NCBI GenBank assembly: GCA_964016885.1 | Contig: OZ024743.1 | Span: 313,410,001-313,474,000 of the forward strand | Length of the DNA stretch: 64,000 nucleotides | Reading direction: 5' to 3' | DNA from: Eledone cirrhosa | Taxonomy: Eukaryota | Shown: positions 2,894-61,025 of the stretch, piece by piece | How positions within the stretch are numbered: position 1 is the first letter of the stretch | Layout: each line of letters opens with the position of its first letter | Notes under the pieces: generated by a model | What the model was told of the DNA's origin: nothing | Databases searched by the model: none | What the model saw: the letters and a program-made list of their open reading frames with translations, nothing else | Position numbers and translations under genes: made by a program

Positions 2894-2895
<2 letters not shown>

Positions 2896-5597: not shown

Positions 5598-5633
5598 AAA
5601 AACAAAACCCACTCAAAACCCACTCATCACTCA

Positions 5634-7064: not shown

Positions 7065-7199
<135 letters not shown>

Positions 7200-7299
7200 C
7201 AAACATAAATTATCGAGATTCGCATTTCCACCCACGAAATAACGAAATACAACCTCCGAGATGTGCGGCAAGTGCTCAATATATAAGTGCTCAACATTG

Positions 7300-7337
<38 letters not shown>

Positions 7338-7512
7338 ATATATATACAGTCAAGAGTAACCAATCTTAAAGAGAGAGATGGAGATTGGAGAGGAGAGATT
7401 GGTGAATTAGTTAGAAGCCAAAGCGTAAAGGCATGGGCTCAATGTGCAATATGCAGTGGAAGGCAGCTAGGTGACTGGGTTCATGCAGAGGTTAGGTGCA
7501 CAGAGCTGGAAA

Positions 7513-8020
7513 TATTCATTAGTTAAGCAAAACAAGACCGCCAATTTCACAAGGAAGACATTATTAAAAGATTGTCAACATATTTTTGTTTGATGTAAGG
7601 AATGTAGAGAATAATGATAATATTAATAATAATAATGTCCGTTTACAATTGTTTCGCTACTCCATATAATATTTCTGGATCAAATGATTATATATCATTA
7701 TTGATCTGAGTGAAATACCAACATATGGAACATTACATTTATGTAACATTCTTTCCTTGTTGTAATTTATATTCCTTTCGAAGGACCGATAAGCTACTCT
7801 ATTTCTACGTATGTTAATTATTTTCAACTGAACCAGATCAATAATGATATATAATCATTTGATCCAGAAATATTATATGGAGTAGCGAAACAATTGAAAA
7901 CGGACATTATTATTATTAATATTCTCTACATTTCTTACATCAAACTAAAATATGTTGACAATCTTTTAATAATGTCTTCCTTGTGAAATTTGTGGTCTTG
8001 TTTTACTTAACTAATGAATA
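7513..8020. repeat. ~190 bp inverted repeat with ~125 bp spacer; probable Penelope-like pLTR remnant
   Basis: 7513-7708 is the reverse complement of 7834-8020 with a few mismatches and one short indel. The arms contain GAGTAGC-GAAACAATTG(TA), a hammerhead 3' half. Confidence 0.85.
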
Positions 8021-8056
<36 letters not shown>

Positions 8057-8162
8057 GAAGTTATATTTAATTTGTTGGGATTTAACAAGCTGACTATCCA
8101 GTGAACCTTCAACGGTCAAGGTTGTTTTTCTACGGTCAACAATTATGAAACATATTTTGTAC

Positions 8163-8221
8163 TTTATCTGATGAAAGCGCACCAAAATTACCTTGGTTGC
8201 CCTTGAAATATATATAATAAA
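8163..8221 (+). ncRNA. Type I minimal hammerhead ribozyme
   Basis: Stem I TTTAT/ATAAA; CTGATGA at 8168-8174; imperfect stem II AAGCGCACCAA/TTGGTTGCCCTT; GAAA at 8205-8208; palindromic TATATA; cleavage triplet ATA. Confidence 0.7.
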
Positions 8222-8262
8222 ATAATTATGGTTTTATAAATATAGTTTCCATTTATTAATAT

Positions 8263-8352
<90 letters not shown>

Positions 8353-8819
8353 ACGTATATATATACAAATATAGAGACAGCATTTAACATGCTTCTATAT
8401 AAAATCTCATCCCATTTTCGATAACTCTCTGTTCTTTATTCTAACATGCTTCTTTTGAGATTAAGATATTGCCATTAGATATTTTACTGATTATAAAATC
8501 GTTGCATAAATATATCATCCAAAATTCATTGATAAACTTAAGACATATGTGTGTGTATGTATGTGTGTACGTAGGTACCCATGTATGTATCTATGTATGT
8601 ACGTATGTCTGTATGTACATATGTATGTATGTATGTTTGTATGTACGTATATATGTATGTATATATGTATGTATGTATGAACGCATGTATGTACGTATGG
8701 ATGTATAATGACTAACGGTAATAGAAAGAATCAACCAATGAGAGATTGTCACGTTCTTTCTTTCTTTAATTCTGTCTGTCACACTGAATTGAATATCAAT
8801 ATCCTAACACATGCGCGCA

Positions 8820-9290
<471 letters not shown>

Positions 9291-9698
9291 TAAAGGAAAA
9301 CTCTTTTCATATCATGACATAACTCTGCCCTCGGCTTTTGGCAGCCATATTGATTTAAGTACTTGAGGTTAGAAATCATCACGATGCTTGATTAACTTGA
9401 GTATGCTATATTTCTCTTTATTTCCCTCAATATTAAGGCTTCATTAATTCATAAATGAATCTCAATTGAAACCTAACGGGTTAGAATTTCCATTTGACAA
9501 TGATATAGACAAGAAAACTTCCAAATGATGGCTACTTACTGTATAATTCAATTGATTCCATTTGTCCAACAGACATTGTGTATATGTATTTAAATATATA
9601 TATATGTGTTTGTGTGTGTGTGTGTGTATGCGTATGTGTGTGTGTTTCTGTGTGTATTATATTATAGTAACATATATATGTATACATACATATATATA

Positions 9699-9729
<31 letters not shown>

Positions 9730-10559
9730 TTATGTAAAGTTTATCCCGAGTTCAATCGGGAGTAACCACAGTAAGAAAGGTACTCAATACATAGCAGAGT
9801 ATACATATTTAATATAGCAGGACTAGAACTGTTTCATATATATATATAGCTACCACTCTTCTAAGCATTAGTTGTGTCCTTGGAAGGGATAGGGTCTCTT
9901 GTATGACCTGAGTTCGTTTCCAACCTCTTCTTCTTCTTGTCCAATAGGATATTGTCCAACATGATTTACTGTCGTGGTTGACTCTATTAAACTTAATCTT
10001 TACACGGGCCCTCGCAGATAATGAGGGCTTATGCTCAGATTTGTGCATCTAGTTTTGCCGCCTTTCGAGTCTATCCCATACGCCCAGTTATAGTGCATGA
10101 TGATTGGAGTAGATTGTGATCTTAAATCACTTGAATTAAGTTATCCTTTATGTCTCTCGATGCATGAGCATAACGTTTCTTTAATTCGTTTCACACTAGT
10201 TTAGTTTCAAAGAGACACTGGTAACGGTAATCCGATTTTTACATAATATTTCTTTAAATATTCGATAATGTCACGTCCGGTATTGCAATCTGAAATATGT
10301 TTTCTTTAATCGAAGGTAAAATGTACGTCCGGTATTGAAACTGCTTGCCTTGTCTTAAAGTTAGAAACCATTTTTGAATTGAAGAATTGTGTAAACAGAA
10401 TTGTTCCTATTGAAAAGAACTATTTCTTTTAAAATATTAAAGGAAAACAGTAACGTTCGGTAGAATTCTATGCATTGTTTAATATTAGTAGAATTCACTG
10501 CAATCGCCATTCTATCAATAGAAAATGTAACCGAATATGTAGGTGTGTAAGAATGTATA

Positions 10560-10919
<360 letters not shown>

Positions 10920-12284
10920 GAAAGGGAGGAAAACGGCATCACATAGCCAACATCATGATGCTGGATATTTGATACGGTCTCTCTTACTTTTCTTAATATT
11001 GATACTGTTTTGATACCATATTCATAATACCTTGTGGCATCCGCCTGATTGCAACATTGTTGGTTGATTGCTTAGATCAACCAACACTAATTTCCATAGT
11101 ATATATATATGTGTGTGTGTGCGTGTGCGCGCGTGTGCGCGTGTGAATGTGTGTGTATACGTGTGTGTGTGTGTGTGCGTGCATGTGTGCGTTTGAGTGT
11201 GTGTGTGTAAACACATACGTGACATTAGGATATTCAAACTTACACATGCTATTGACAACTCTTTGTTGTCTTTCTGCTTTAATCATCTACATGATCATTT
11301 TTTTTTTTATAATAACATTGTTTTAACATATTGTATCACGTGTGTTACTATATATAGAGAATAATTTAGTGAGCGAATATTTGTCTTTTAATCACAATTA
11401 GTCCTGATCAGGTAGGCATATCATCGCAAGTAATTCCTCCATTACCTTATGTTCTTTAAAAATGTATCGTTCATTCACCTTTGTATAATAGAATGGCGGT
11501 CTGTTGAACAAAGCAAGGGGACCACGGTTGAAGTACATCACTCGATACTTCAGATTGAGTAGGTACATAATTTATATTTCATTTACAAGTGACAGTGTTG
11601 TTAATATTACTTCTAAATGAAACAAAATTATTTATGAATATGTACGTGTGAGTGTGTGCGTGCGTGTGTGCGTGCGTGTGTGCGTGTGTGTGTGCGTGCG
11701 TGTGTGCGTGCGTGTGTGTATATGTGAGAATACGTTTGTGGGTGTCGATTACTACATTTATTGCGGTCGAATTGGTAGACTTTTTAGAGTGTTGGGTATT
11801 TGTTTCCCCGAGACTAATACAGAAAAATGGTGAATAAGCCCTAAATGCTGCGTTACTGTCGGACTGTAAACTCAGCCCGTGTATTGATCACATTAGGCTG
11901 TATATTTGAATCTAAGGCGAGGAATAGGCAGTATCATTACAACGTCGCGTAGAATGCTTCGTGTTATAAGTTTTGTCACTTTGAGCTCTGAGTTGAAATA
12001 CCTCTCTTCCTCTCGCAGTGGATAATTAATGTAGCAATCCAGCACTGAGGTCGAATCTTCCTCTACATCTCTTTTTCACTTCTCTCTCACTTTCTCAGGA
12101 TGAAATCGCCGCCGTTAAGAGCTGGAGATGAATTGGCTCAGTTCGGTTTAAATTCGTATATGTACTAAACAACAACTTCATACCTACGACACCATCAGAA
12201 ATTAAGGGACCATGGAATTGTATTCAAGATATGAAAGCAGCGTAAAGTATCTGAATGATACATAGGTGATATTCATATTAGAAA

Positions 12285-12580
12285 TCAATATCTTCTTCTT
12301 GAAGAAGGTGAAGCATGCACAAATTCTTGTTCCAGACTTCCAGTTTTCTCATCACAGCAAAAAAAATCTCGTCCGGTGAGGCCAGTGTCCCTCATCAACA
12401 GAGTTCCGATCGTTATATTTCGACGCTTTGCATTTGGCGACCAAAGAAGCAGTTTCCCTGTAGGTTGATCATGGCGGGAAACATGACCAGCAAGAGCCAA
12501 GCGACGAGATCGAGCTTTCGATGAAACTTGTTAGTAGTGTGACTTTGCCATGAACTGTTGAACACCACGCGTAACAGTAA
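12285..12580 (-). mobile_element. Old RTE-type LINE 3' fragment
   Basis: ORF 12285-12500 reads LAGHVSRHDQPTGKLLLWSP...RDTGL, homologous to the RTE C-terminus above. Confidence 0.7.
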
Positions 12581-13298
12581 TAAATCAATGTAAGGGTGAT
12601 ATTATTAAAAGACCAATAACATATCATATGTTGATTGATTTACTAAAGTTAGATAATAGATTCTCATTTGCAAGCAAATGCAATAAAATTAATAATGCAT
12701 TTAATGAAAAAATGTTTTTGCTGAATATCGATATGGTATCGATAAATCATTTTGCTAGTTTGATAACATCAAAGTGGGAATATCATATCCGACGTACGAG
12801 ACTTATCTATTTCGATTCCACACAGGCGTCTCTATTCAATTTTTCTGACTAGAAAGGAGAGATATAAAGAGGTGCGATACAGAATACTACATGCCAAAAG
12901 CAGATGTGTAGTGTGCCCGATGCTTGGGTTATCAGGGTTAAATATTAGAGAAAGTTAATATTTAGTGTAAGGATTAAGCAGAGCTGGAATAAGCAAACAA
13001 ATGAGTGAATGAAAGAGTTAAAAGCCGTTAAAACATATCTGTATATAGCTCTTACACGTGTTTCGCCCAGGGGGGCTCGTATATATATATATATAATATA
13101 TAATTCGTTTTTGAACTTGCTTTGCGAGATTTCTTATCTGAAAACGTGTGTTGAATCATATATTGTTATACTTTGGGAGGGTCATGCTGCCAATAAAAAC
13201 GCACGCACCTATTGATTTTCACTTCAATTTATTGAACGTTTCTGGTTGGTTGGCTGGCTGGTTGGTTGGTTCGATAACCGGAAGGTTGTATATATATT

Positions 13299-27955: not shown

Positions 27956-30900
27956 TTACAGACACATACTCAGAGAAGGCCCATTCATTCGGGCCATACT
28001 TGCTTCTCTCACCCATCTTTCAACAAAATGCTGGGAAGAGAGCACTTCCCTCTCTACCCTGATTTTCCTTTTCAAATGAAATTTGAAAAAGTTAATCAGG
28101 GCATCACCGAAGAGGTAAGTGCTCGTCTTCAGCCCTTTCAAACGTGTCCACCATACTATCTCTTTCGCCATGGCCACCAGACAGATAAAAACTGCCTACC
28201 CTTCCCGGCTAAAGGAAGGGGGCGGGGCAATCCTCACGATGGACTCAGCTGATAGCTGGATCCGTCCTACACGTGACAGTAGGTGTTCGACATAAACCCA
28301 CAAGTCAGCAATGCTCGGACACTGGACGAGTGCGTGCAGGACGGTTTCGTCGCCCTGCGCGCATCTCGGACATGCCCGGCTGACGGCACCTCCATGCCTG
28401 TAGAGTTTATCCCGAACTGGCAAAGCTCCTCGGTAGCACTGCCAGGCCAGGGATTTCTGGAAGTTGTCCATAGGCCCCGGCCCGAAAGTCCTTCCGAAGA
28501 GATTGGCTAGTTGATTTTCGTCGACGCCTAGAGTTTCTCCAAGTACGTCGTCGCTCTTCCCCTCCACTAATCCCCTATAGAACGCCAAGGTGGAGTTTCC
28601 ACCGATCACATTGCCCGATTGGTCGAGGGCTGTGAGCGCCTGAAGACATTCCAGTCTCCAAGCGCTCCCTCTCGGTCTTCGCTTGACCCACGACTGCAGC
28701 TCCGTCAAGGAGACGAGCTGGGGAAAAACGTGTCTAGCAAACGGCGACCACACCTGATCACCGTCGAGGAAGAGGTGGAGATGTCGTAGCCTGAGCGCGG
28801 GTCTGCGCATCATCAGCCACGGCATGCCCAGCCCTCCACGTAGCGGGTGTTGACAGCAGATGGACCGCCTGACCATCGGAGCGCGTCCCTTCCACAAGAA
28901 GCGAAACAGCAAACGCTCCAGCGCAGTCAGGCGGGGCTTAGGACAAGGTACGACGGTCAGGCGGTAGTAGATGACGGATGCGATGTACGCATTCGCCACC
29001 TCCGCTCGAGCTTTCAGGGATAGCTTCCTCTCGGCCCATTTCTGGGTGAGAGAAGCCACCCTGCTCGTCACCTCGTCCCAGTTTTTGTCCGTCTGGAGGT
29101 CTGGACCGAACCAGACCCCTAGCAATTTAACCGGTCCGTCCGTCCAGCGCCCGACGACGCTGTTGGACGGCATGGACCTGCCTCTCCAGGTGCCGAGCTG
29201 CAGGCCCACTGACTTTTCCTGGTTGATCATTGCTCCTGTCACCGCTTCGTATTCTCTGAGTGTAGTGCCGATCGCCTCGATGTGTTTGGCGTTCGACACC
29301 ACTACGGTGACATCGTCGGCATATGCTGACACGGATCTTCCGCATCCTAGTTCGCGCGGGACCCCCCCTCAACGTCTCCAGTTTGTGCAGTAATGGCTCG
29401 AGAGTCAATACGTACAATAGGGACGAGAGGGGACATCCTTGGCGGACCGAGCGCATGATGTTGAACGGTTCCGAAAGGTGACCGTTCACTCTCACTACAG
29501 AGCAGATGTCGCTGTGCATGGCAGCGATCCAGCCTCTGAAGACGGGCCCAAAGCCAGCCGCCCTCAGGACTGCCGCTAGGTAACGATGGTTGACCCTATC
29601 GAAGGCTTTCGATTGATCTAAATTGATCAAAGACCCACCCTTGCCAGGTTCCCTAGCTACCCTCTCTACAATGGCGCATCCTTTTCACTCTCTACAATGG
29701 CGCATGTCTATGCCTCTCCCACCAGACCACCAACGACAAGCGCCAACCTCTTTGCTAGCACCTTGGCCAAAATCTTGAACTCTGTGTTTAGCAGAGTTAT
29801 GGGCCTAAAATGATCTATGTTATCCCCCTTGTTCGGATCCTTTCTCAGCAGCGCCACCGCTCCTCGGCTCACAGAGCTTGGAATTCTCCCGTTCTGTTGC
29901 CAGTTGCAGTAGACGTCCGCCAAGAGGCCTCCGAACAAGTCTGGCATTTGTACGTAAAGTTTATAGAGCAGACCATCCAAACCAGGCGATTTACCCCTTG
30001 TGCAGCCAGTCATTGCCTCCCGTACTTCAGCGGTTGTTATCGGCTTTTCGCAACACTCCGCCTCAGTGGCCGAAAGCCGCGGCAGTCCGTCGAGGTAGAC
30101 ACTAAAGTCCATCCCTCGATCCGGCCCGCCACTGCCCCCGAACAGTTGAGCGAAGTGTCGCTGAAAAGCTTCACACATTTGCCCGGGATCGAGTAGCATG
30201 CGCCCGTCGTGGTCCACCAAAGACCGGATCGTGGCTTTATTGCCTCGACGCGTCTCCGCCACTCGGGCCCATTGAACGGCTTTCATCCTCTCGTGTCTGA
30301 GAGCACGCACACTAGCTCTGACAACGCAGCCTTCGTGCTTTGCATTGAAGAATTGGTCAAGGGCCAATTTCGCCGTAAGTACGTCGGTCGCGATTCCTTT
30401 GCTAAGCGCCTCGTCTAATTTTCTAACTAATTCTTCCTCTGCTCTATTTTTCTCTATTGCTAAAGCCTTACTAAACCTAATGGATTCTATTCTAATTGCT
30501 CTTTTCAGAGTAAACCACCACTTGTTGTTGACGATGGCCCCGTCAACGCCCGCTTAACTAGTTCGCTACTCCGGTCTCTGTAGGCCTTGCGCGCTGGTAA
30601 GGACGCGTTTAGCTTCCAGTAGCCGGGTCCTCGTCTATGAAGCCTATCTAAGTCAAACACGCAGATCACGAATTTGAGGTCCGTGTAGCTGACTATCTTG
30701 AATTGTGGACAGCCTATGCTAGACCTATCTATTTCCCTACAAAATACTCTATCTAGATATGATCTCGATGACCCTATGCGATTTGTCCAAGTCCACATTG
30801 GTACATTCGGGAAATCCATTCGGTACCTGTCAGACAGTTCAAAACGCCTCAGCAGGTTGGTGAGACTCTTGTACCCTCCTTCCCTATCCACTAATCCCAC

Positions 30901-31357
30901 ACAATCCCAGCGTGCATCTAAGATCCCGTTCCAGTCGCCCACTATCACTAAAGAGCGAGACGTTCCAAGAAAGGTCTCCAGACGCCGGAAGAAATCAGGC
31001 CGCCCTGCTCCTGTCGGGGCATAGACGGCCACTAACCTGAAAGCTTGCCCGTCTCCGCTGGTCACGTGCAGCACCACCAACTTACCTTCTGGGTCCAGGA
31101 AGATGGCCCGTATGGCAAGATCCAAACCTCTCCGAAAAAGCACAGCAACTCATCCCCCCCGATCCCGGACGGCTGGGAGATGCGTACACATCGTAGCCGC
31201 CGAAGATCGGTTCGAAGGCCCGTGCTTCGGAGATTCTGGTCTCGCTGATGGCCACTACATCTATGTTTAGTGACCTGAGGTCGTTGAGCAGGTGGCCCTG
31301 CTTCCATGACAACCCCAAGCCACGCGCATTTATGCTGCCTATTCTGAGTGAGGTCAT
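27956..31357 (-). pseudogene. Tx1-like ORF2 (APE, RT, zf-RVT), frameshifted
   Basis: Fragments: SINARGL/ISETR, VYAP/VGDWN/SYLDR, GYWKLN, KSPGLDGL/FRPITLLNTEFKILAK, DQSKAFDRV, QGCPLS, YADD, KLLG, CPRC..ETVLH..C. Confidence 0.9.
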
Positions 31358-31391
31358 GTTGAAAAGGAGTGGAAAAGATGGGAAAGACCAC

Positions 31392-33370
31392 TTACCTTAC
31401 TTCTCGTAGGGGAAGGACGGTTTTTCCATCCTTTTCACTGCTTGTGGCCTCCTCAGGAAGGATGACCTTATAAATCCTCCTGGAGAGTGCTTGTCGGAAG
31501 TCTCCGATGTCTTTGGGGAATTTTTGTTTTAGTGTCATGTACGTTTTCTGTGTGATGCGAGTGATTTGTATGCGTGGAGGTGGTGTGAATTTTTGGGTTG
31601 TTGTGTAGTCTTTTTCTGTGATGCTGGTGTTGTGTTGGATGTAGTGTAATAATTGCTTGTTGTTCAAATTTAATGCTGTGTAGTGTGTATCGTTTTGGTT
31701 GTTTTGTTTTGTTTACGTTTGTTGTGGATTTGTTGCTGTTTCGCATTTTGGTGACTTTTGTGGTGTAGGTGATGGTGGTGTTGGGGTTAATGATGGTGAT
31801 GGTGTTGGTGTTTGGGTTGATGGGGTTGGTGATGCTGGTGGGGATGGTAGAATATCTGTCCTAACTTTTTTGTTTGTTAATTTATTTACTTCCCTCTGTA
31901 TTTTGTTTTTGGAGGGGGAAGGAAGAGAATTTTTTCTTTTTTGGTTTCTTTTTTTTTTTCCTGATACCGTTTCCCACTCCTCGTCATCTGTCTTCAGTTG
32001 TGATAGGCCGGGGAGTGGAAAATCCTCCACAGGCGTTAGTTTTGGTTGTGGCTTCGTGGATGGTGTAGGCGCTGGTGCTAGTTCTGAAGCGTTGGGTGGT
32101 GGTGGTGTTGGTTTTGCTGGTGGTGGTGGTGTTGGTTTTTCTACTGTTGCTAGGGTTGTTGCTGTTATAGTTGCTTCTGTTGTTGCTGCTACAGTTGTTG
32201 CTGCCATCTCTGCTACTGGTGGTGTTGATGGTTGTGTCACTGGGGTGGGTAGGAGAGGTGGCCTCAACCTTTTAGCCTGAGAGCAGAATGCCTTTAGGTG
32301 GGTTCCTTCACCACAAACGACCCACCTAGGTCTTCTGCCCTCGACAATTACGGTGAGGTGGCTGCCGTCAGTGAGGTCTATTACCTCTGGGATCTCCTCA
32401 ATGCTTTTTTGGTCCGCTTGGATCAGGAGCTCCATCCCAGATCCGGACCAGTTCTCCTGCTTTTCTTTTGCTATTGCTATTATTTTTGTGTTGGCCTCGA
32501 TGCCGGCGAGGACGGCCGCTATTAGCCAGGGAATTTCGATGGCCGGTGGAACGTGGGTCACCCTGATCTTTACGAGTCTCTGGCCACAATAGCTTGGGAC
32601 GAGTGTGAAGTCGTCACTTCTTAATGGGGCCATGGAGTGTTCTCTAGCCTCCTCTGGTGTTTCAAAGAACACGTCAACGGTTCCATATTTCTGCCCACGT
32701 CTGATGTGGGTTTTTCTTGCCCACACATGTCCCAAAGCTTTTTGGATTTGGGACTCGGATGCCCGTTCCACTCGGCACGATTTTACATTTATTGTTCGAT
32801 ACGACACAGTGCATAAGCGCCGATGCTCCATTTTATTAGGTGGCGGGGTGAGGCTGACCCTGTACCCATCTTTCTTTACCATTTGTTTGGCATTTTCTAA
32901 ATCCTCCTGAGTTACCGTAAATGCTTCGAACTGTTTTGCTACTTTGGCAAAACTGAGGGTGGTTTTTTTAATGCCATTGTTGTTGTTGTTGCTATCGTTA
33001 TTTTTGTTATTATTAATTTTAGTTTCAGTTGTGGTGGTGGTGACGTCAGTGAAATTCTGTTTGGGAGAGTCCATTTTGGAAAATATTTCGACATCACGAG
33101 TTGATTTATTTTTTCCTTTTGTTTCTGTTGTCGCGGTGGTGGTGGTGGTGTGGTGGTTGTCGCGGTGGTGGTGGTGGTGGAGGCTTTAACACCTGCAGTC
33201 ATTGGTAATGGCGGGAAATGAATGTCTGCCTGAGACAAATTTAAAATATTGCTAGTGCTTAAATTGTGTGTGTTGGCAGACGTAATATCATTTACAATGG
33301 TGGTGTCGGTGTAAGGTGTTAATTTGTGAGAAAGGCTTTCAGCTGCTTGGTGCAGTGGTGAATTAGCCAT
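31392..33370 (-). pseudogene. Tx1-like ORF1 (RRM-like region, zinc knuckle, Pro/Thr-rich tail), disrupted
   Basis: ORF 32939-33370 frameshifts into 31713-33074, then continues in frame past a CAA>TAA change into 31392-31667. Copy 2 has an intact CVVCGEGTHLRAFC knuckle. Confidence 0.8.
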
Positions 33371-33579
33371 TTTTTTTCAAAGAAAATGTTTGATAATCAT
33401 AAAAGTTTAAATTTTGGGCACAAGGCCCCAATCTTTTTGGGTGTCCTTTTCGGAAAACAATGTATGTGCGTTTATATATAGTTAACAATAAAAATTTTCC
33501 ATAAATGGCAATTTTTAACAAACGGAAATAACAAACCTTTGCGGAGTTCACGATGATACGACTTACTACGTAGGTCGCC

Positions 33580-33612
<33 letters not shown>

Positions 33613-33837
33613 TTCTTTATTAACCACAATGGTTTACATAAAGTAGACATTAAGGACAGTACAGGACAATACAGGACGGTATAAATGGGCATTTCTGCGT
33701 GTAAAAAACAGAGGATGTAATAAAATAAAAAAGAGGGGGGAGACTTCCGAGGGACATTTGTGGAGAAAGCCCATTAAAAGACCACAGTGACCCTGACCAC
33801 CAGGGCAAGTGCCCTCTCCCAGTTTTCCACCTTTAAT

Positions 33838-36800
33838 TTACAGACACATACTCAGAGAAGGCCCATTCATTCGGGCCATACTTGCTTCTCTCACCCATCT
33901 TTCAACAAAATGTTGGGAAGAGAGCACTTCCCTCTCTACCCTGATTTTCCTTTTCAAATGAAATTTGAAAAAGTTAATCAGGGCATCACCGAAGAGGTAA
34001 GTGCTCGTCTTCAGCCCTTTCAAACGTGTCCACCATACTATCTCTTTCGCCATGGCCACCAGACAGATAAAAACTGCCTGCCCTTCCCGGCTAAAGGAAG
34101 AGGGCGGGGCAATCCTCACGATGGACTCAGCTGATAGCTGGATCACTCCTACACGTGACAGCAGGTGTTCGACATAAACCCACAAGTCAGCAATGCTCGG
34201 ACACTGGACGAGTGCTTGCAGGACGGTTTCGTCGCTCTGTGCGACTCTCGGACATGCCCGGCTGACGGAACCTCCATGCATGTAGAGTTTATCCCGAACT
34301 GGCAAAGCTCCTCGGTAGCACTGCCAGGCCAGGGATTTCTGGAAGTTGTCTATAGGCCCCGGCCCGAAAGTCCTTCCGAAGAGATTGGCTAGTTGATTTT
34401 CGTCGACGCCTAGAGTTTCTCCAAGTACGTCGTCGCTCTTCCCCTCCACTAATCCTCTATAGAACGCCAAGGTGGAGTTTCCACCGATCACATTGCCCGA
34501 TTGGTCGAGGGCTGTGAGTGCCTGAAGACATTCCAGTTTCCAAGCGCTCCCTCTCGGTCTTCGCTTGACCCAGGACTGCAGCTCCGTCAAGAAGACGAGC
34601 TGGGGAAAGACGTGTCTAGCAAACGGCGACCACACCTGATCACCGTCGAGGAAGAGGTGGAGATGTCGTAGCCTGAGCGCGTGTCTGCGCATCATCAGCC
34701 ACGGCATGCCCAGCCCTCCACGTAGCGGGTGTTGACAGCAGATGGACCGCCTTACCAACGGAGGGCGTCCCTTCCACAAAAAGCGAAAGAGCAAACGCTC
34801 CAGCGCAGTCTGGCGGGGCTTAGGACAAGGTACGACGGTCAGGCCGTAGTAGATGACGGACGCGATATACGCGTTAGCCACCTCCGCTCGACTTTTCAGG
34901 GATAGCTTCCTCTCCGCCCATTTCTGGGTGAGAGAAGCCACCCTGCTCGTCACCTCGTCCCAGTTTTTGTCCGTCTGGAGGTCCGGACCGAACCAGACCC
35001 CTAGCAATTTAACCGGTCTGTCCGTCCAGCGCTCGACGACGCTGTTGGACGGCATGGACCTGCCTCTCCAGGTGCCGAGCTGCAGGCCCACTGACTTTTC
35101 CTGGTTGGTCATTGCTCCTGTCACCGCTTCGTATTCTCTGAGTGTAGTGCCGATCGCCTCGATGTGTTTGGCGTTCGACACCACTACGATGACATCGTCC
35201 GCATATGCTGACACGGATCTTCCGCATTCTAGTTCGCGCGGGACGCCCCTCAACGTCTCCAGTTTGCAGTAATCGCTCGAGAGTCAATACGTACAAGAGG
35301 GACGAGAGGGGACATCCTTGGCGGACCGAGCGCATGATGTTGAACGGTTCCGAAAGGTGACCGTTCACTCTCACCACATAGCAGATGTCGCTGTCCATGG
35401 CAGCGATCCAGCCTCTGAAGACGGGCCCAAAGTCAGCCGCCCTCAGGACTGCCGCTAGGTAACGATGGTCGACCCTATCGAAAGCTTTCGACTGATCTAA
35501 ATTGATCAAGGACCCACCCATGCCAGGTTCCCTAGCTACCCTCTCTACAATGTATCGCATGAGGTGGAGGTTGTCGAGGATGGATCTGTCGGGAATGGCG
35601 CATGTCTGCGCCTCTCCCACCAGACCACCAACGACAAGCCCCAAACTCTTTGCTGCACCTTGGCCAAAATCTTGAACTCTGTGTTTAGCAGAGTTATGGG
35701 CCTGAAATTATCTATGTTATCCCCCTTGTTCGGATCCTCTCTCAGCAGCGCCACAGTTCCTCGGTTCACAGAGCTAGGAATTCACCCGTTCTGTTGCCAG
35801 TTGCAGTAGACGTCCGCCAAGAGGCCTCCGAACAAGTCTGGCATCTGTACGTAAAGTTCATAGGGCAGACCATCCAAACCAGGCGATTTACCCCTTGTGC
35901 AGCCAGTCATTGCCTCCCGTACTTCAGCGGCTGTTATCGGCTTTTTTCAACCCTCCGCCTCAGTGGTCGAGAGCCGCGACAGTCCGTCGAGGTAGACACT
36001 AAAGTACATCCCTCGATCCGGCCCGCCACTGCCCCCAAACAGCTGTGCGAAGTGTCGCTGAAAAGCTTCACACATTTGCCCGGGATCGAGTAGCATGCGC
36101 GCCCGTCGTGGTCCACCGAAGACCGGATCGTGGCTTTGTTGCTACGACTCGCCTCCGCCACACGGGCCCATTGAACGGCTTTCGTCACCTCGTGTCTTAG
36201 AGCATGCATCCTAGCTCTGACAACGCAGCCTTCGTGCTTTGCATTGAAGAATTGGTCAAGGGCCAATTTCGCCGTAAGTACGTCAGTCGCGATTCCTTTG
36301 CTAAGCGCCTCGTCTAATTTTCTAACTAATTCTTCCTCTGCTTTATTTTTCTCTATTGCTAAAACCTTACTAAACCTAATGGACTCTATTCTAATTGCTC
36401 TTTTCAGAGCAAACCACCACTTGTTGTTGACGATGGCCCCCGTCAACGCCCGCTTAACTAGTTCGCTAAGACGGTCTTTGTAGGCCTTGACGCTGGTAAG
36501 GACGCGTTTAGCTTCCAGTAGCCGGGTCCTCGTCTATGAAGCCTATCTAAGTCAAGCACACAGATCACGAATTTGTGGTCCGTGTAGCTGACTATCTTGA
36601 ATTGTGGACAGCCTATGCTAGACCTATCTATTTCCCTACAAAATACTCTATCTAGATGACCCTATGCGATTTGTCCAAGTCCACATTGGCACATTCAAAA
36701 CAGTTCAAAACGCCTGAGCAGGTGGGTGAGGCTTTTGCACGCTCCTCCCCTATCCGATAATCTCACACAGTCCCAGCGTCCATCTCAGATCCCGTTCTAG

Positions 36801-37221
36801 TCGCCCACTAACACTAAAGAGCGGGAGTTCCAAGAAAGGTCTCCAGACGCCGGAAGAAATCAGGCCGCCCTGCTCCTGTCGGGGCATAGACGGCCACTAG
36901 CCTGAAAGCTTGCCCGTCTCCGCTGGTCACGTCTCGCACAACCAACTTACCTTCTGGGTCCATGAAGATGGCCCGTATGGCGAGATCCAAACTTCTCCGA
37001 AAAAGCACAGCAACTCATCCCTCCGATCCCAGACGGCTGGGAGATGCATACACATCGTAGCCGCCGAAGATCGGTGTGAAGGCCCGTGCTTCGGAGATTC
37101 TGGTCTCGCTGATGGCCACTACATCTATGTTTAGTGACCTGAGGTCGTTGAGCAGGTGGCCTTGCTTCCATGACGACCCCAAGCCACGCGCATTTATGCT
37201 GCCTATTCTGAGTGAGGTCAT
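33838..37221 (-). pseudogene. Tx1-like ORF2, frameshifted
   Basis: Same motifs as copy 1 with mostly different lesions. Confidence 0.9.
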
Positions 37222-37255
37222 GTTGAAATGGAGTGGAAAAGATGGGAAAGACCAC

Positions 37256-39184
37256 TTACCTTACTTCTCGTTGAGGAAGGATGGTTTCTCCATCCTTTTC
37301 ACTGCTTGTGGCCTCCTCCGGAAGGATGTCCTTATAAATCCTCCTGGAGAGTGTTTGTCGGAGGTCTCGGATGTCTTTGTGGAATTTTTGTTTTAGTGTC
37401 GTGTACGTTTTCTGTGTGGTGCGAGTGATTTGTATGAGTGGAGGTGGTGTGAACTTTTGGGTTGTTGTGTAGTCTTTTTCTGTGATGCTGGTGTTGTGTT
37501 GCATGTAGTGTAATAATTGGTTGTTGTTCAAATTTAATGCTGTGTAGTGTGTATCGTTTTGGTTGTTTTGTTTTGTTTGCGTTTGTTGTGGGTTTGTTTC
37601 TGTTACGCTTTTTGGTTACTTTTGGGTGTTGGTGAAGGTGGTGTTGGGGTTAATGATGGTGATGGTGTTGGTGTTTGTGGTGATGGGGTTGGTGATGCTG
37701 GTGTGGATGGTGGCATATCTGTCCTAACTTTTTTGTTTGATAATTTATTTGTTTCCCACTGTATTTTGTTTTTGGAGCGGGAAGGAAGAGAATTTTTTCT
37801 TTTTTGTTTTCTTTTTTTCTTTTTTCCTGATACCGTTTCCCACTCCTCGTCGTCACAATCTGTCTCCAGTTGCGATAAGCCGGGGAGTGGAAACTCCTCC
37901 ACAGGCGTTGGTTTTGGTTGTGGCGTGGTGGATGGTGTAAGCGCTGGTGTTAGTTCTGGCGCGTTGGGTGTTAGTGGTGTTGGTTTCGCTACTGTTGCTG
38001 GGGTTGTTGCTGTTACAGTTGCTTCTGTTGTTGCTCCTACAGTTGTTGCTGCCATTTCTGCTGCTGGTGGTGTTGATGGTTGAGTCACTGGGGTGGGTAT
38101 GAGAGGTGGCCTCAACCTTTTAGCCTGAGGGCAGAAAGCCCTTAGGTGGGTTCCTTCACCACAAACGACACACCTAGGTATTCTGCCCTCGACGATTACG
38201 GTGAGGTGGCTGCCGTCAGTGAGGTCTATTACTTCTGGGATCTCCTCAATGCTTTTATGGTCCGCTTGGATCAGGAGCTCCATCCCAGATCGAGACCAGT
38301 TCTCCTGCTTTTCTTTCGCTATTTCAATTATCTTGGTGTTGGCCTCGATGCCGGCGAGGACGGCAGCCATTAGCCAGGGAATTTCGATGGCCGGTGGAAC
38401 GTGGGTCACCCTGATCTTCACAAGTCTCTGGCCACAATAGCTTGGGACGAGTGTGAAGTCATCACTGCTTAATGGGGCCATGGAGTGTTCTCTGGCCTCC
38501 TGTGGTGTTTCAAAGAACACGTCCACAGTTCCATATTTCTGCCCACGTCTGATGTGGGTTTTTCTTGCCCACACATGTCCTAAAGCTTTTTAGTTTTGGG
38601 ACTCGGAGCCCGTTCCACTCGGCGCGATTTTATCTTAATTGTCCGATAAGACACGGTGCATAGGCGACGTTGCTCCATTTTATTAGGTGTGTGTGTGTGT
38701 GTGTGGGGGGAGCTGACCCTGTACCCATCTTTCTTTACCATTCCTTTTCTAATTCCTTTTGAGTTACCTGGATCGCTTCGCACGTTTTTGCTACTCTGGC
38801 AAAACTCAGGGTAGTTTTCTTAATTTCATTGTTGCTGTTGTTGTTATCGTTATTTTTGCTATTGTTAATTTTAGTTTCAGTTGTGGTGGTGGTGGCGTCA
38901 GTGGTGTTCGGTGTGGAAGAGTTCATTTTGGTTGAATTCATTTCGATATCACGAGTTAATTTATTTTTTTCTTTTGTTTCTGTTGTCGCTGTGGTGGTGG
39001 TGGGGGTGGCGGCTTTAACACCTGCAGTCATTGCTAATGGCGGGAAATGAACGTCTGCCTGAGACAAATTTAAAATATTGCTACTGCTTACATTTCCAGT
39101 GTTGGCAAACGTAGCAATATTTACAATGGTGGTGTCGGTGTGAGGTGTTAGAGTGTGAGGAAGGAGTGACTCTGAGTCATCCAT
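37256..39184 (-). pseudogene. Tx1-like ORF1, frameshifted
   Basis: ORF pieces 38735-39184, 38580-38783, 37603-38574 and 37256-37531; CCHC knuckle. Confidence 0.8.
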
Positions 39185-51244: not shown

Positions 51245-51420
51245 TTAGGCCCAAGGCCAACAACTTTTTTGGGGAAAGAGAAATTCGATTAAACCGACTC
51301 CAGTGCATGACTGGTATTTTATTTTATCGACCCCGTAAGGATGAAAGATAAAGCTAACCTCAGCCGGATTTGCAATCAGAACGCAAAGAGTCGTAACTCT
51401 ATGCTAGGAAGCATGTTGTC
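51245..51420 (-). mobile_element. tRNA-derived SINE
   Basis: ccagtgcatgactggtattttattttatcgaccccgtaaggatgaaag...tcgtaactctatgc. Confidence 0.8.
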
Positions 51421-52240: not shown

Positions 52241-52419
52241 ACTATTCCACGCCATACATACATATATATATATGTATACGTAAAAAAAAAATTCGAATGT
52301 TATTATTAATATTCTAAAAACTCAGATTACATTTATTGTATTCAGCCATGTAGAGCGAAAATATTTTTTTTATTTGAATGTGGCAAAGTCGGCCATTTAT
52401 CGCTCGTATACAGGAAACT

Positions 52420-52525
52420 GACAGGCCAGTCTGCTGATATGCAAATCTGGCTGACCAGTGGATCTGCTAATATGCAGATCTGATTGATCAGCCAGTCTGC
52501 TAATATGCAAATCAGGCCGATCAGT
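52420..52525 (+). promoter_or_regulatory. Three 33 bp repeats, each with an octamer-type motif
   Basis: ATGCAAAT at 52439-52446, ATGCAGAT at 52472-52479 and ATGCAAAT at 52505-52512, each in a tctgct(g/a)at context. Function is inferred only. Confidence 0.5.
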
Positions 52526-52588
52526 CACTGTATATTTTGGAAAATAGCATATATTTTCATTAGCTCTGACAGTTGGCAGGTGAAAAGT

Positions 52589-52639
52589 GAGCTGTACTGA
52601 TGACGGGGTGATACCCAGAAACACTAGTGTCTGCAGTTC
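52589..52639 (+). ncRNA. Type I hammerhead ribozyme
   Basis: Stem I GAGCTGTA/TGCAGTTC (8 bp, two G-U pairs); CTGATGA at 52597-52603; stem II GGG gtgata CCC with a C-A mismatch at the base; GAAA at 52618-52621; palindromic ACACTAGTGT; GTC cleavage site at 52629-52631. Confidence 0.88.
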
Positions 52640-52842
52640 TGTTTACATGCCAAAAAAAAAGAGCAGGAATGAAGGGTTCATTCTATTGACATGGCTTTAA
52701 AAATGAGGTTTGTTTGCATAATTGCAAACGAATCGAATGTTATTATTAATATTCAAAAAACTCAGATTACATAAATATACATACACACGTACATGTATCG
52801 CTCCATCCATTAATCCATGCATACATTCATTCTTCGATCCAT

Positions 52843-52937
<95 letters not shown>

Positions 52938-55970: not shown

Positions 55971-58900
55971 ATGCCCCACAAGAAAATAACTTTCATTGGT
56001 CGATTATCTAATGATGCTTGTAGGTCTAAGCGAAGACGTCTCACCGAAGATGTAAATGCGACTGCGATCAGGCTCTCACAGAATGCTGTGCACACGGCAG
56101 CTGCAAGAGCGGAGGAGGATGACAGTAGGCGTGAACTTTGACGGAACAAAGATGCTGCCGCGACCGCTGCTGCTCGCGCTCGAGAGGATGAAGGACGACG
56201 TGCCGTTCGACGAAGCAGGGTCGCCACTGCAACATCCGCTGCTCGCGCTCGAGAGGATGAAGGACGACGCGCCGTTCGACGAAGCAGGGTCGCCACTGCA
56301 ACATCCGCTGCTCGCGCTCGAGAGGATGAAGGACGACGCGCCGTTCGACGAAGCAGGGTCGCCACTGCAACATCCGCTGCTCGCGCTCGAGAGGATGAAG
56401 GACGACGCGCCGTTCGACGAAGCAGGAACGCTACTGCAATAGCCGCCGCTCGCGCGCGAGAGGATGAAGGACGACGCACCGTTCGACGAAGCAGGGACGC
56501 CACTGCAACATCCGCTGCTCGCGTCCGAGAGGATGAAGGACGACGCGCCGTTCGACGAAGCAGGGACGCCACTGCAACATCCGCTGCTCGAGAGGATGAA
56601 GGACTACACGTCGTTCGATGAAGCAGGGACACCACTGCAACATCCGCTGCTCGCGCTCGAGAGGATGAAGGACTACGCGCCGTTCGACGAAGCAGGAACG
56701 CTACTGCAACAGCCGCCGCTCGAGAGGATGAAGGACTACACGTCGTTCGATGAAGCAGGGACGCCACTGCAACATCAGCTGCTCGCGCTCGAGAGGATGA
56801 AGGACTACGCGCCGCTGTTGCTGCACGAAATACTGAAACCATAGAGAAGCGACGTGGCCGACTTCTTCAATCATTGTTACGTGGCATTTCTAGGACTTGC
56901 AATTCACAATGGTTGTTGAAGGCCTTTAACTACAACCCCTCCTCCGACTACACTGTCCATGCAGGCATTCAAATTAGGGAAATGACCGCTACTTTCCAGT
57001 TTTGTCGTACGAAAACGGGGCCAGGAGAGAGAGATAGAATGTTCTATTCAAACCCTAAAGTTAAACTACCTCCTATTCACGATCCTCCAGAAACATTGCA
57101 ACTCCATTTGACAGACACGACGGAGGAATCATCGAAGTTCCTGCGTATTATCCGCCGCTACAATTCCGCGTTTCAGATGACATCCTTCGGAGCAAAGCTT
57201 ACCTCAGAACGTGGGTTCATGCCAACTTTCAAGGTCCGGGGGCAGATCTACCACTTGATTGGTTCTATTCAGCCTCTGGTAGAAAAGGATCCCCAATTTC
57301 TTCAGTTATACTTCGTTGGAAACTATCAGGAGCAGGCAGAGATGCGAAACTCTAATTCGTTCGAAACTAACATTAAAACCATAATAAAACTTCAAGAAAT
57401 GCTTCATGACAAAAACAGCTATGTTCGCAGTTTCAAGTACGCTTTGGAGACAGCCACTGACCCAAACTTTAGTGTGGTCATACATGCTGACCGAAGGCCA
57501 TCTGGAAAACACGCTGGTCGGTTCAACGCACCAACATGTAATGAGATTGCTGCGGTTTTTTGTGGTGAACAGCACACCAAGAGAGATAACATTCTAAAGC
57601 ACCGAGACAGCACATTACAGCGTATCAATGAGACACACAGGTCTTATGATGCACTTCAGTATCCATTACTATTTGTCAACGGCGAGGACGGATACCATTT
57701 CGGCATTCCTCAACATTCAGCAGGCAATGGTGAGGCACATCACCTGCATGGATTTCTACGCTTTCCGATTTATGGTAGGGGACAATTCATTCAACCATCT
57801 ACACCGTTCTCGGGACCCTTTCCAACAATTTGCTGTTGATATGGCCGTTAAAATGTAGTCCGAGAGATTATGGTTCATTAAATTAAATTAAAAGAAACTT
57901 CAATCTGAATGCTACATTCATCTATGCGATGGAATTAACAACGACGTGTCCCCAGACAATTTAGGGCAAGTGTGTATTTTGCATTCAACGTTCACAGGGG
58001 GACACCGATACATGCACGAGAGGACTCAGGACGCCATGACTTACGTACGACATTATGGGCGCCCCGATCTTTTCATAACGTTTACATGCAATCCCAAGTG
58101 GAAGGAGATTACAAATGAACTGTTCCACGGTCAAGCGCCAAGACACAGGCACGATCTCATAGCAAGAGTGTTTCGCCTGAACTTATCCAAATTAATAGAT
58201 TTATTAAAGAAAGGACATGTTTTGGGGCCTGTCAAGTGCGACATGTACACGGTTGAATAGCAGAAACGAGGGCTGCCGCATACCCATATCTTGATTTGGT
58301 TGGTTACAAAAATCAGTTCAAACTACATCGACAAATTCACTTCTGCCGAACCACCTGATCCGTCGATTGACAAGGACCTCTTCTCTATAGTCACATCAAA
58401 CATGGTCCATGGTCCTTTCGGACATGGACTCAATATGAAGTCACCGTACATAAACAACGGAAAGTGTACAAAACGATATCCCAGGCCGTTTTTACAGGAA
58501 ACACAGACTGGTGGTGACGGATATCCGTTGTATAGGCGCAGGAGACCTGAAGACGGTGGGTTCACAGCAAAAGTTGGCGAACGCAAAATCGAAACAGCTG
58601 GATAGTGCCATATTGCCCCCTCTTGAAAGCGTTCAACGCCCATATAAACATCGAATTTTGCAACTCAGTAACATCAATTAAATACGTTTGTAAGTACGCA
58701 AACAAGGGATTGGATGCTGCCGTCTTTGGTCTTCGTCATGAAAACAGTAGAGACGAGGTATCTGACTACCAAGCAGGCCGATACATTAGCAGCAATGAAG
58801 CCTTTTGGCGCATTTTTGGCTTCCCACTGCACAAACGATACCCCGTCATTAAACAACTTGCCGTTCACCTCGTAAACGGTCAACGGGTGTATTTCAATGA

Positions 58901-61025
58901 TGCAACAGCTGCTCAGCTAGCGATCTCACCAAAGGAAACTACACTCATCGCTTTTTTCAAACTTTGTCAACACGACGACTTCGCTCGAACTCTGCTGTAT
59001 TCTGAAATACCGTCTTACTATACATGGAACCAGACAAAATGGCTACAAAGGAAGGTAGCGCAAGAGGTGACTGGACATCCAGGCATCAAATTCGACAATT
59101 GCCTTGGGCGAGTTTATACGGTCCACCCTACCCAACACGAATGCTTCTACCTGCGACTTCTGCCTCATTTGGTAAGAAAGCCGCCCAGCTTCACTCATCT
59201 GAGAACCGTCGATGGATACGCCTGCTGAACGTACAGGGAAGCCTGCTTCAGGCGTGGACTTTTAGAAGATGATGCACAATGGGGTGCAGCCTTGACGGAA
59301 GCTGCCATCTCACAATCATCCCATAGTTTAAGGGCACTTTTTCCTATCCTCCTACACGTCTGTGAATTGAGCGATCCTTACTCTTTATAGCAAAAGTTTA
59401 AAGATGATTTCGCAGACGAATATAGGCGTCTCGCTCAATTGTAATCTCCAAACTTAGATGTCGGCTTTTCAGACGCTATATATAACAGAGCTCTGATCGA
59501 TATTGAAGACAGAGTGGCTTCAATGGGCGGAGATGTCTTGGAGAAATATGGGCTTCCGAAAACACTTCGAGATACGCCATCTGACATTCCCAACGACATT
59601 ATACGTGAAACGTCATATGATATCGACGAACTGAAAAGGTATGTTGAAGAAAATGAACCAAAACTTCTAATGGATCAAAAACAAGCCTACAACATTGTCG
59701 TCGATTCCATCCGTAATCGGGCAGGGGGTATATTCGTCCTGGACGCACCTGGAGGCATGGGCAAAACATTTGTAATCAAACTTTTACTCGCTGTAGTGAG
59801 GCAACACGGAACCATCGCATTGGCCGTGGCTTCTTCCGACATTGCAGCAAATTTGCTGCCTGCTGGCAGGACGGCCCATTCTGCCTTCAGTCTTCCTCTC
59901 AACGTGGCATTATCTGAGACACCCATGTGCAACATCAGCAAGTCTTACGGAAAAGCACTGGTGTTAAAGTGCTGCCTACAATTGTTTGGAACGAATGCAC
60001 AATGGCCCACAGGGCGGCTTTTGAGGCATTAGACCGATCATTCAGAGACATCAGGGCCTGTCAAGAACCAATGGGAGATGTCACTTTCCTGTTATCTGGG
60101 GACTTCCGACAGACTGCCTGTAATCCCAAAAGGTACGCGGGCTGATGAGGTTGGTGCATTCCTTAAGGCCTCCCCACTTTGGAGTTATGTAAGAAAGCTG
60201 ACGCTTACAACAAACATGAGAGCACAACTGCAAGGTGATGAGACATCAGTGGGTTTTGCTGCTGCCATTTTGTTCTTGGGAGATGGCAAAGTCCCACTCG
60301 ACGGAGATGGTGCAGCGGACCTCACAAGAATTTGCAGATGCGTTAAGTCAATTGCTGAGTTACGGAGTCTGTTTTTCCTAATCTTGAGGAGAACTACACA
60401 AATCAAGAGTGGTTGTGTGAACGTGCAATATTGGCTTCGTAAAACCACATAGTTGGAAACATCAATGAATAGCTCATGCTATGCTTGCCTGGAAACCTGC
60501 ACCTCTACAAGTCCCTTGACTCTATGGCTGATCCGGAGGAAGTTGTTAATTACCCCCACAGAATTTCTTAACTCCCTGGACCCTCCTGGATTGCCACTAC
60601 ACTTACTGGGACTTAAGAAAGGTGCCCCTGAAATGCTCCTCAGGAATTTGGAACCCCGAAGGCTTTCCAACGGCACGCGACTGGTCGTCCAAAAGGCGAT
60701 GCCTCATGTTATTGACGCAACAATACTTACAGGATGTGATAAGGTGGACACTGTCTTCATACCAAGGATGCCTCTCATTCCATCCGGTAAAGACATTCCT
60801 TTCACATTCAGAAGGCTACAATTCCCTCTCGGGCTCAGTTTTGCGATGTTGGTTAACAAATCATAGGGCCAGACGCTGACGGTCGTACGGCTTAATTTAG
60901 AAGAACCGTGCTTCTCTCATGGTCAACTATATGTTGGCTTCTCTCGAGTCGGTAGCCGACATAACCTATTTGCTTTTGCAACTCGCGAGAAAACCCAAAA
61001 TATAATCTATAAGGAAGTTTTGTAG
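55971..61025 (+). pseudogene. Helitron Rep/PIF1 helicase (RepHel), multiple stops and frameshifts
   Basis: ATG 55971 is in frame with ORF 56874. Motifs: IRRYNSAFQMTSFG, YDALQYPLL, GRPDLFITFTCNPKW, VE*QKRGLPHTHIL (HUH), IKYVCKYANKG, DAPGGMGKTF, GRTAHSAF, GDFRQ, LSNGTRL, QFPL, GQLYV. Confidence 0.93.
56172..56812 (+). repeat. Coding minisatellite, about 10 x 69 bp (two 63 bp units)
   Basis: cgagaggatgaagga at 56181, 56250, 56319, 56388, 56457, 56526, 56589, 56658, 56721 and 56790; encodes AREDEGRRAVRRSR(V/D/N)ATATSAAR. Confidence 0.93.

Follow-up and report, generated by a model that had tools for sequence, protein, structure and literature searches.

The window analysed here, a stretch of 64,000 nucleotides of the Eledone cirrhosa genome, contains a short repeat that begins again at its own end and combines a hammerhead motif with octamer-like sequences, which raises the question of how such a unit is transcribed and by which machinery it is copied. 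The first-pass annotation took the locus for a candidate retrozyme, a ~1.1-mer copied from a circular or multimeric RNA, mobilised by Penelope-like elements (PLEs) and driven by an Oct/POU-type promoter of its own. PLEs are named as no more than candidate movers of retrozymes in PMC7229834 (2020), which, like the papers cited below, is quoted for the part consulted, and a preprint argues the link from co-occurrence and sequence likeness (bioRxiv 10.64898/2026.07.22.740005). Here, we describe the window copy as a member of a large hammerhead repeat family whose copies bear the insertion signature of PLEs. We consider it reasonably probable that the family is copied from RNA, mostly linear, by the reverse transcriptase and endonuclease of a PLE, and that this RNA is transcribed from the family's own snRNA-type promoter.

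The window copy and its hammerhead

Positions within the unit are numbered from u1, which is window position 52293. The 440-bp unit (u1-u440; 52293-52732, plus strand) is non-coding, has a GC content of 38% and is strongly self-paired, with a fold (z = -10.0) that 0 of 100 shuffles equalled; no ORF of at least 120 aa overlaps it in the window. Its first 40 bp (52293-52332) recur 440 bp downstream (52733-52772, plus strand), as originally described, although with 39 of 40 positions identical rather than exactly. The 5' flank (52254-52292) is TA-rich and A-rich, with no evident target-site duplication, and the 3' flank (52773-52937) consists of (CA)n and (TA)n microsatellites, so that the description of a non-coding unit of ~440 bp set among microsatellites holds.

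Three 33-bp repeats occupy 52418-52524 on the plus strand (period 33, 3.2 copies, 72% matches), a region that folds as one long hairpin (z = -5.26). Each repeat contains an octamer-like motif, at 52439, 52472 and 52505, together with the first letters of the proximal box discussed below; the octamer at 52472 is one mismatch away from the canonical sequence. The arrangement reads as a triplication of the octamer and the start of the box, with the full context present only in the third repeat, and because all three octamers derive from this one tandem triplication, they are not independent. The repeats and their octamers are present as annotated, but the evidence for a promoter does not come from three phased octamers forming a distal enhancer. 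Across the window as a whole, the octamer pattern shows no enrichment (7 seen vs 8.46 expected).

A motif script identified a type I hammerhead with an extended stem I at 52573-52653 on the plus strand, comprising a core at 52597-52631 (starting at u305), an 8-bp stem I, a self-complementary stem III and a predicted cut after 52631 (u339); stem I is extended by pairing of 52573-52596 with 52632-52653. Rfam scans detected no hammerhead in the window, at the gathering cut-off or at E <= 10, and none in a typical copy (L002) of family A, as we denote the 440-bp unit family of the window copy, and returned a weak HH9 match (18.5 bits against a cut-off of 52) in a second family, B. The type I assignment is therefore made from the sequence itself, by its core letters and stems. 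The motif had been called nearly canonical with a GTC site, and the core, stems I-III and the cut position bear this out, whereas the proposed Infernal check gave no match and stem II closes in a mismatch. At this closing position, A stands opposite A in 100 of 113 family A copies and in about 98% of the contig depth in DNA runs X1-X3, which contradicts the idea that T is the family state at C52604; the window letters at 52604-52605 are a private two-letter change. The mismatch is a common trait, because families B and D show it too.

In a typical family A copy, the hammerhead fold lies 6 kcal/mol above the minimum-energy fold, and pairing between two stem III strands comes to -8.8 kcal/mol, a modelled energy that fits dimer-dependent cutting of the kind described in PMC4209133. 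Under these folding models, the A-A closure of stem II and the more stable misfold could make cleavage slow or absent. Among predicted Xenopus retrozymes, 8 of 9 were without cleavage in vitro (bioRxiv 10.64898/2026.07.22.740005).

Copy number and insertion signature

Genome pattern searches yielded 1,170 exact matches to the hammerhead core and 1,861 to the 3' motif, with 0 matches to the controls. Among the best 40 of 3,508 candidates in a DNA search for family A, the full-length matches are 92-94% identical; the mean identity of the family is 93.6%, and a divergence of 5-7.5%, if assumed, implies ~6,000-13,000 hammerhead-bearing arms, where an arm is one collinear piece of family A repeat. 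The window copy is a 1.1-unit copy of this large non-coding hammerhead repeat family, so that the expectation of many copies, as against single-copy status, proved right. The sequence features of retrozymes, namely a hammerhead core with its stems in a short, non-coding, low-GC (0.38), multicopy unit, are all found in family A, and the assignment of the locus to repeats of the retrozyme kind is supported by these features, the 440-bp length and the strong fold.

Copy ends were sampled by following the order of the listed matches along contig C1 (177 loci, yielding 266 distinct arms) and thus were not selected. The 3' ends of 231 of the 266 arms are canonical, falling at one or other of two fixed sites separated by about 37 bp, with 124 at u35-50 (short ends) and 107 at u57-90 (tail ends); the other 35 are elsewhere. 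The 5' ends vary and are scattered across the unit. An inverted partner lies on the 5' side of 206 of the 266 arms, 72 of the 76 inverted pairs with canonical ends consist of one short and one tail arm, and a microsatellite follows 186 of the 231 canonical 3' ends, with (TA)n flanks dominating. Two hammerhead cores are present in 10 of the 266 arms and three in none; the longest continuous family A arm measures 760 bp, and neither long tandem multimers nor two full continuous units were seen among the family A arms. Copies with different permutation points and tandem multimers, both anticipated at first, thus did not materialise, the 3' ends being fixed and the 5' ends alone varying. Fixed ends had also been named as a mark of membership in a longer element; the 3' ends are indeed fixed, but what precedes the unit on its 5' side is more unit.

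According to PMC8557442, PLEs show 5' truncation, partial tandems, an inverted 5' copy, a tail of 30-40 bp at one end and a microsatellite bias, and, in vitro, the tail reflects two internal starts of reverse transcription, with uncut RNA as the main substrate (PMC11167929). All three tested components of the signature of endonuclease-positive (EN+) PLEs occur in family A: truncation with tandems and inversion, the one-end tail, and microsatellite or AT-rich targets. Because the ends show these traits, the terminal redundancy is explained by a partial tandem whose 3' end is fixed rather than by a random cut of a circle. PLE-type mobilisation of family A is, in our assessment, highly probable, and the original suggestion of Penelope-like movement is backed by the tail, inversion and microsatellite signature at the copy ends. 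In the window copy, the second unit start (52733-52772) terminates at the short 3' end of the family and the 37-bp PLE-type tail is absent from this 3' end; an internal copy of the tail segment (u45-u81; 52337-52373, plus strand), with a T-rich run last, lies between the two fixed 3' ends.

Many family A copies (for example, L007, L016, L027, L043 and L056) are interrupted at an AT-rich spot, u10-u27, by a repeat that, by its resemblance, is presumably SINE-like and is related to window 51290-51390; 51 stubs begin at u9-11 behind this inserted repeat.

Family B (L191, L315-L344) has a unit of about 473 bp with an internal microsatellite, is young, with copies 98-100% identical, and is found in arrays of 10 units or more, with inversions that span several units and with short and tail ends of its own (L191:6860-7250; L315-L344, including an array at 176.98 Mb of G000 C2). 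It is like family A in its octamer, spacing, TATA-like box, hammerhead order, short and tail ends, inversions and stem II mismatch, and differs in having one octamer, the internal microsatellite and long arrays; the Pol II matrix introduced below gives no score in family B, family C or the PLE repeats, which counts against the promoter reading. Tandem arrangement, a further retrozyme feature, is weakly developed in family A and fully in family B, and the latter is the better candidate for current activity and circles. At least three further hammerhead repeat families are present, C or B2 (L115, L192), D (L190:6645, L199:5266) and one at window 8168-8220 that resembles L191:5851. At L358:1400-1610, family D sequence immediately adjoins a U6 copy, possibly a chimera made by the same machinery. 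Elsewhere in the window, a GC-rich 69-bp tandem repeat (9.5 copies) heads broken, Helitron-like ORFs with PIF1 helicase matches (56169-60866), broken copies of LINE-type reverse transcriptases lie at 2894-6566 and 28196-38589, one type twice in tandem, and 2619-2689 gives a weak tRNA-like match (34.6 bits).

The promoter-like module and the form of the template

For comparison, host U1, U2, U4, U5 and U6 genes were taken from the same genome. The U1, U2, U4 and U5 genes have two boxes in common, one with a four-letter core at -54 to -57, the other AT-rich and near -30. A resemblance of the unit to the proximal box was noticed by eye before a matrix was built from 13 distinct host U1/U2/U5 promoters, with U4 held out. 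The best site in the unit, 52519-52555 on the sense (plus) strand, comprises a PSE-like box and an AT-rich box resembling those of the host U1/U2/U5 promoters and scores 13.4-15.9 bits, within the leave-one-out range and matched by 0-1 of 126,828 background positions and 1 of 300 shuffles. It also outscores the held-out U4 promoter, for which the matrix locates two of the three loci tested and misses the third. By this test, a host-type proximal box is present in the unit at snRNA spacing, and the spacing of the host Pol II snRNA genes predicts a transcription start at 52576-52579 on the plus strand (U6 spacing would place it at 52580-52583). Two further host snRNA boxes, near -88 and near -255, were not seen in the unit by eye, and no snRNA 3' box was found in it (best 4.5 bits, chance 0.77 per unit). 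As to the host promoter grammar itself, the octamer stands at -77 in U6 (upstream of L345-L348), and the upstream regions of U1/U2/U4/U5 (L201-L254) have a different proximal box and an AT-rich box at -88, with the box near -255 shared by U1 and U2.

None of 39 host U1/U2/U4/U5 loci, many of which are tandem copies of one promoter, has an octamer within 350 bp. At U6, an octamer followed by AG is located at -76 to -79 in 4 of the 7 loci listed (of 16), representing three distinct promoters, and is absent in place from the remaining three. The third octamer of the unit with its following AG (52504-52515, plus strand) matches this U6 motif and is retained in two distant families, B and C. Families A and B align best from octamer to hammerhead (68/104, E 7e-6), with the octamer block identical at 11/11, and the 8-nt gap between octamer and box in family A is kept in family B and in the third family, C. 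Lower divergence of the octamer columns (0.013-0.017 vs 0.038, 29 copies, the mean including subfamily variants) was considered as evidence of conservation and rejected because the copies decay neutrally. We consider a functional internal snRNA-type promoter probable. The promoter proposed at the outset finds its support in a proximal box and one octamer and not in a threefold distal enhancer, and host U1/U2/U4/U5 genes are without the octamer; octamer conservation among families applies to the third octamer and not to three independent ones.

The 5' ends of copies were analysed in a strict set of 237 arms from 207 loci, from which 55 non-canonical 3' ends, the 51 stubs behind the inserted repeat, 74 internal breaks, 16 arms followed by another long piece, 1 arm at a locus edge and 42 duplicates had been dropped; the pieces at L042, L054, L259, L274, L281 and L282 are separate or rearranged and do not represent continuous second-pass arms. 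Among second-pass arms, 10 of 16 stop at u276-306 (52568-52598), compared with 14 of 115 first-pass arms at the same sequence (p 3e-5). By u240, 14 of 16 second-pass arms have stopped against 26 of 115 first-pass arms (p 7e-7; second-pass n of only 16), and 2 of 16 pass this point on the second lap. A looser second-pass count (10/15 vs 12/137; exact-cut p 2e-4) was inflated by chaining and is replaced by the strict one. The second-pass ends upstream of the predicted start include five at u277-281, 3-7 nt upstream of it, and four at u240-264, which, speculatively, could come from the box in the second 33-bp repeat. A targeted scan of u275-288 produced 35 matches and 29 true ends, 27 after removal of a triplicated locus, among which there is no clear peak (at most 5 per position vs about 2 expected by a hand estimate). 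About 7 of these 27 ends (L361-L395, u283-284) start with an extra A just before u284 that is absent from read-through copies; post hoc, it is possibly an untemplated base at the RNA 5' end.

Stops at an identical sequence differ between the passes and so are not accounted for by RNA structure alone, and because the 5' flanks of second-pass arms differ, no flank was carried along. An edge on the second lap is not expected from a circle but is expected from a linear RNA with its start near the predicted site, and a linear template is thus favoured; we judge it likely that the templates are mainly linear RNA. Arms that end exactly at the predicted cut (u339-340) number 7 of the 98 at risk, 4 of 78 on the first pass and 3 of 20 on the second, with p values of 0.026 and 0.005, respectively, against the rate at u341-420 and of 0.20 and 0.005 against the local rate at u341-360. 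Across the cut, the per-base stop rate drops 2.7-fold, from 28/1872 to 12/2146. This drop and the excess of ends lend modest, indirect support to past cleavage. In two clean cases, L170 and L292, the promoter lies upstream of two hammerheads, and copies of this type must come from longer read-through RNA or circles.

One alternative differs from our explanation in the polymerase alone, taking the module for a U6-type (Pol III) promoter with the octamer at about -77, TATA at about -30, a start at 52580-52583 and termination in T runs at the tail end. The octamer-AG motif speaks for it, being found in three distinct U6 promoters and absent from U1/U2/U4/U5, as do the T runs of at least 4, which in families A and B sit at the tail end or between the tail end and the start the initial 225 (A) or 340 (B) bases of the transcript being free of them. 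However, templates with two hammerheads must cross those T runs, the tail of family B ends 5-8 nt past its T8 run, the five second-pass ends at u277-281 lie 7-14 nt upstream of the U6-spaced start, and the octamer-to-TATA distance, 46 in family A and 43 in family B, is 1-6 nt short of the 47-49 in host U6, with a non-canonical TATA in the unit. Pol II is favoured, because long templates cross T runs and family B tails pass the T8 run, and Pol III transcription appears rather unlikely.

Transcription from an internal promoter must also be weighed against the view that the promoter-like motifs are inherited relics and that copies derive from read-through transcripts of a few source loci, the course that a review proposes for retrozymes in general. 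A 2020 review (PMC7761336), in the part consulted, has metazoan retrozymes as seemingly without promoters, conservation among neutrally decaying copies is uninformative on selection, and the start position is not sharp. Nevertheless, the matrix score is beyond background, the octamer, its spacing and the first box letters are kept between families that barely align elsewhere, and second-pass arms stop near the predicted start; we regard the relic reading as unlikely and retain the predicted promoter.

As to the template, the standard retrozyme cycle would have monomers, released from hammerhead to hammerhead, ligated into a 440-nt circle that serves as the main template for rolling reverse transcription. 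In favour of a circle, the cut site is traversed without a stop by most long arms, base pairing within the unit is extensive, circular forms of the mussel, coral and axolotl retrozymes are abundant (PMC7229834), the related family B forms its long arrays with multi-unit inversions, and 2 of 16 arms do pass u240. A position-specific stop on the second lap is unexpected for it, though, and yet 14 of 16 arms stop by u240; in addition, no continuous arm attains two full units, 7 arms have their start right at the cut, a linear end, and the read-through junctions are of normal length (150/151) with no ligation scar, an observation that is neutral if ligation is exact. A circle as the main template is therefore quite improbable, and mainly linear templates remain our preference; for a minor circular route alongside the linear one, we see a real chance, if somewhat short of even. 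The original description of the locus as a ~1.1-mer is retained in its first part, whereas the circular template is not required.

The putative PLE partner, the proposed cycle and known systems

GIY-YIG domains are abundant in the genome (best 150 of 10,596 candidates scored), ORFs with reverse transcriptase (RT) plus GIY-YIG reach 938 aa, 6 of the 9 ORFs tested match both domains, and the RT-GIY-YIG ORFs carry the CX4CxxC linker of the Neptune/Nematis type. One host PLE family has a hammerhead and a ~40-bp tail inside its 3' repeat, and for one PLE protein (L184), the named relatives come from bivalves (53-63% identity), which fits a mollusc. A search of 50 GIY-YIG loci (of the 10,596 candidates) revealed no autonomous partner that bears a homologous repeat, the unit occurring there as nested insertions at 2 places and in no other form; in 16 PLE 3' regions, unit homology is confined, among the matches listed, to nested copies and microsatellites; and an ORF of RT plus GIY-YIG joined to the repeat was seen neither in the unit nor in the long arms nor in the 50 loci. 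We infer the partner of family A by kind alone, as a Neptune-type PLE. That the unit is the terminal repeat (pLTR) of a still-unfound autonomous PLE, with the copies as truncated insertions, is very improbable, for although the insertion signature at copy ends, the location of hammerheads in pLTRs (PMC4209133), the match of Xenopus retrozymes to pLTRs (bioRxiv 2026.07.22.740005) and the coverage of only 50 GIY-YIG loci fit it, arms longer than one unit have the unit again 5' of the unit, and the nested insertions at 2 places account for the unit in the 50 loci. Descent of the unit from a pLTR is likely; its present autonomy as a PLE is not supported.

The cycle that we favour would start from a source locus of at least two units, at which the host snRNA machinery would bind the octamer and proximal box of the first unit. 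The RNA would begin ~55 nt before the first hammerhead cut and cross two hammerheads, each cutting part of the time. A Neptune-type PLE protein, the presumed enzyme behind a footprint that is visible in the genome, would nick AT-rich or (TA)n DNA, and reverse transcription from two internal sites, u40-49 and u67-83, would produce the short and tail ends, often head-to-head. Most of the resulting copies have lost part of their 5' region, stops being in excess both at the cut site and close to the predicted start, and rare longer copies with the promoter upstream of two hammerheads, such as the two clean cases, would renew the family. The window copy has the promoter-like module but one hammerhead and, therefore, would not by itself give rise to a unit-length cleaved RNA; having one hammerhead only, it also falls outside the "active" class as given in the consulted part of the 2026 preprint (bioRxiv 10.64898/2026.07.22.740005).

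More tentatively, and with greater doubt than confidence, these repeats may be seen as selfish snRNA-like genes with a promoter borrowed from the SNAPc system of the host, in which the U6 octamer is combined with the U1/U2/U5 proximal box. Copying of linear RNA by a Neptune-type PLE would lose the upstream promoter each round, and the hammerhead would make a rare circle, the copying of which would restore a promoter upstream of two hammerheads.

Family A is like the metazoan non-LTR retrozymes described in PMC7229834 and bioRxiv 10.64898/2026.07.22.740005 in its short, low-GC, self-paired, non-coding unit, in its single type I hammerhead with a self-complementary stem III, and in the presence of dispersed monomers, partial dimers and PLEs in the same genome. 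Unlike the coral, mussel and axolotl retrozymes, it is without long arrays and its 5'-end statistics favour linear templates; furthermore, its copy ends bear the PLE tail and inversion signature, which is not reported for retrozymes in the consulted parts of these two sources, and its unit holds an internal host-type promoter-like module. With the EN+ PLEs Neptune and Nematis (PMC8557442; PMC11167929; PMC4209133), it shares 5' truncation, partial tandems, an inverted 5' copy, a 30-40-bp tail, AT-rich or microsatellite targets, a hammerhead near the 3' end and the usability of uncut RNA as a template, and it differs in the absence of an ORF, in a full stem III and long stem I, and in having no homologous autonomous element in the 50 loci. 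The cited exception with an snRNA-type promoter on a hammerhead repeat is newt satellite 2 (PMC2220036). Family A is alike in combining a hammerhead repeat with an internal snRNA-type promoter, which is predicted here, and differs in an octamer that adjoins the proximal box (8 nt apart) and matches host U6 rather than U1/U2, and in being dispersed with PLE-type ends rather than arranged as a satellite array. In the newt repeat studied by Coats, Zhang and Epstein in 1994, the octamer is said to lie far upstream and the start a few dozen bases before the cut, the latter much as predicted for family A.

In the literature searched, of which the coverage is incomplete and in which the supplements of PMC7229834 and PMC4209133 could list cephalopod families, neither a cephalopod hammerhead retrozyme nor a retrozyme snRNA promoter is described; the giant squid genome paper, in the part consulted, counts 235 Hammerhead_1 matches with no description of the elements. 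Two points on animal retrozymes become testable, namely who moves them and how they are transcribed. The observations that bear on them are, on the one hand, a non-coding hammerhead unit whose copies bear the PLE-specific two-site tail and inversions and, on the other, a promoter-like module that matches host snRNA genes, is kept between distant families and coincides with the stops of copies. A compact host-type snRNA promoter may, moreover, find practical use in work on this group of animals. If these findings are confirmed, newt satellite 2 would not stand alone, and transposition would not have to proceed mainly through circles; if the selfish snRNA-like reading is true, the job of the hammerhead would be promoter renewal, and newt satellite 2 would be tied to a general design.
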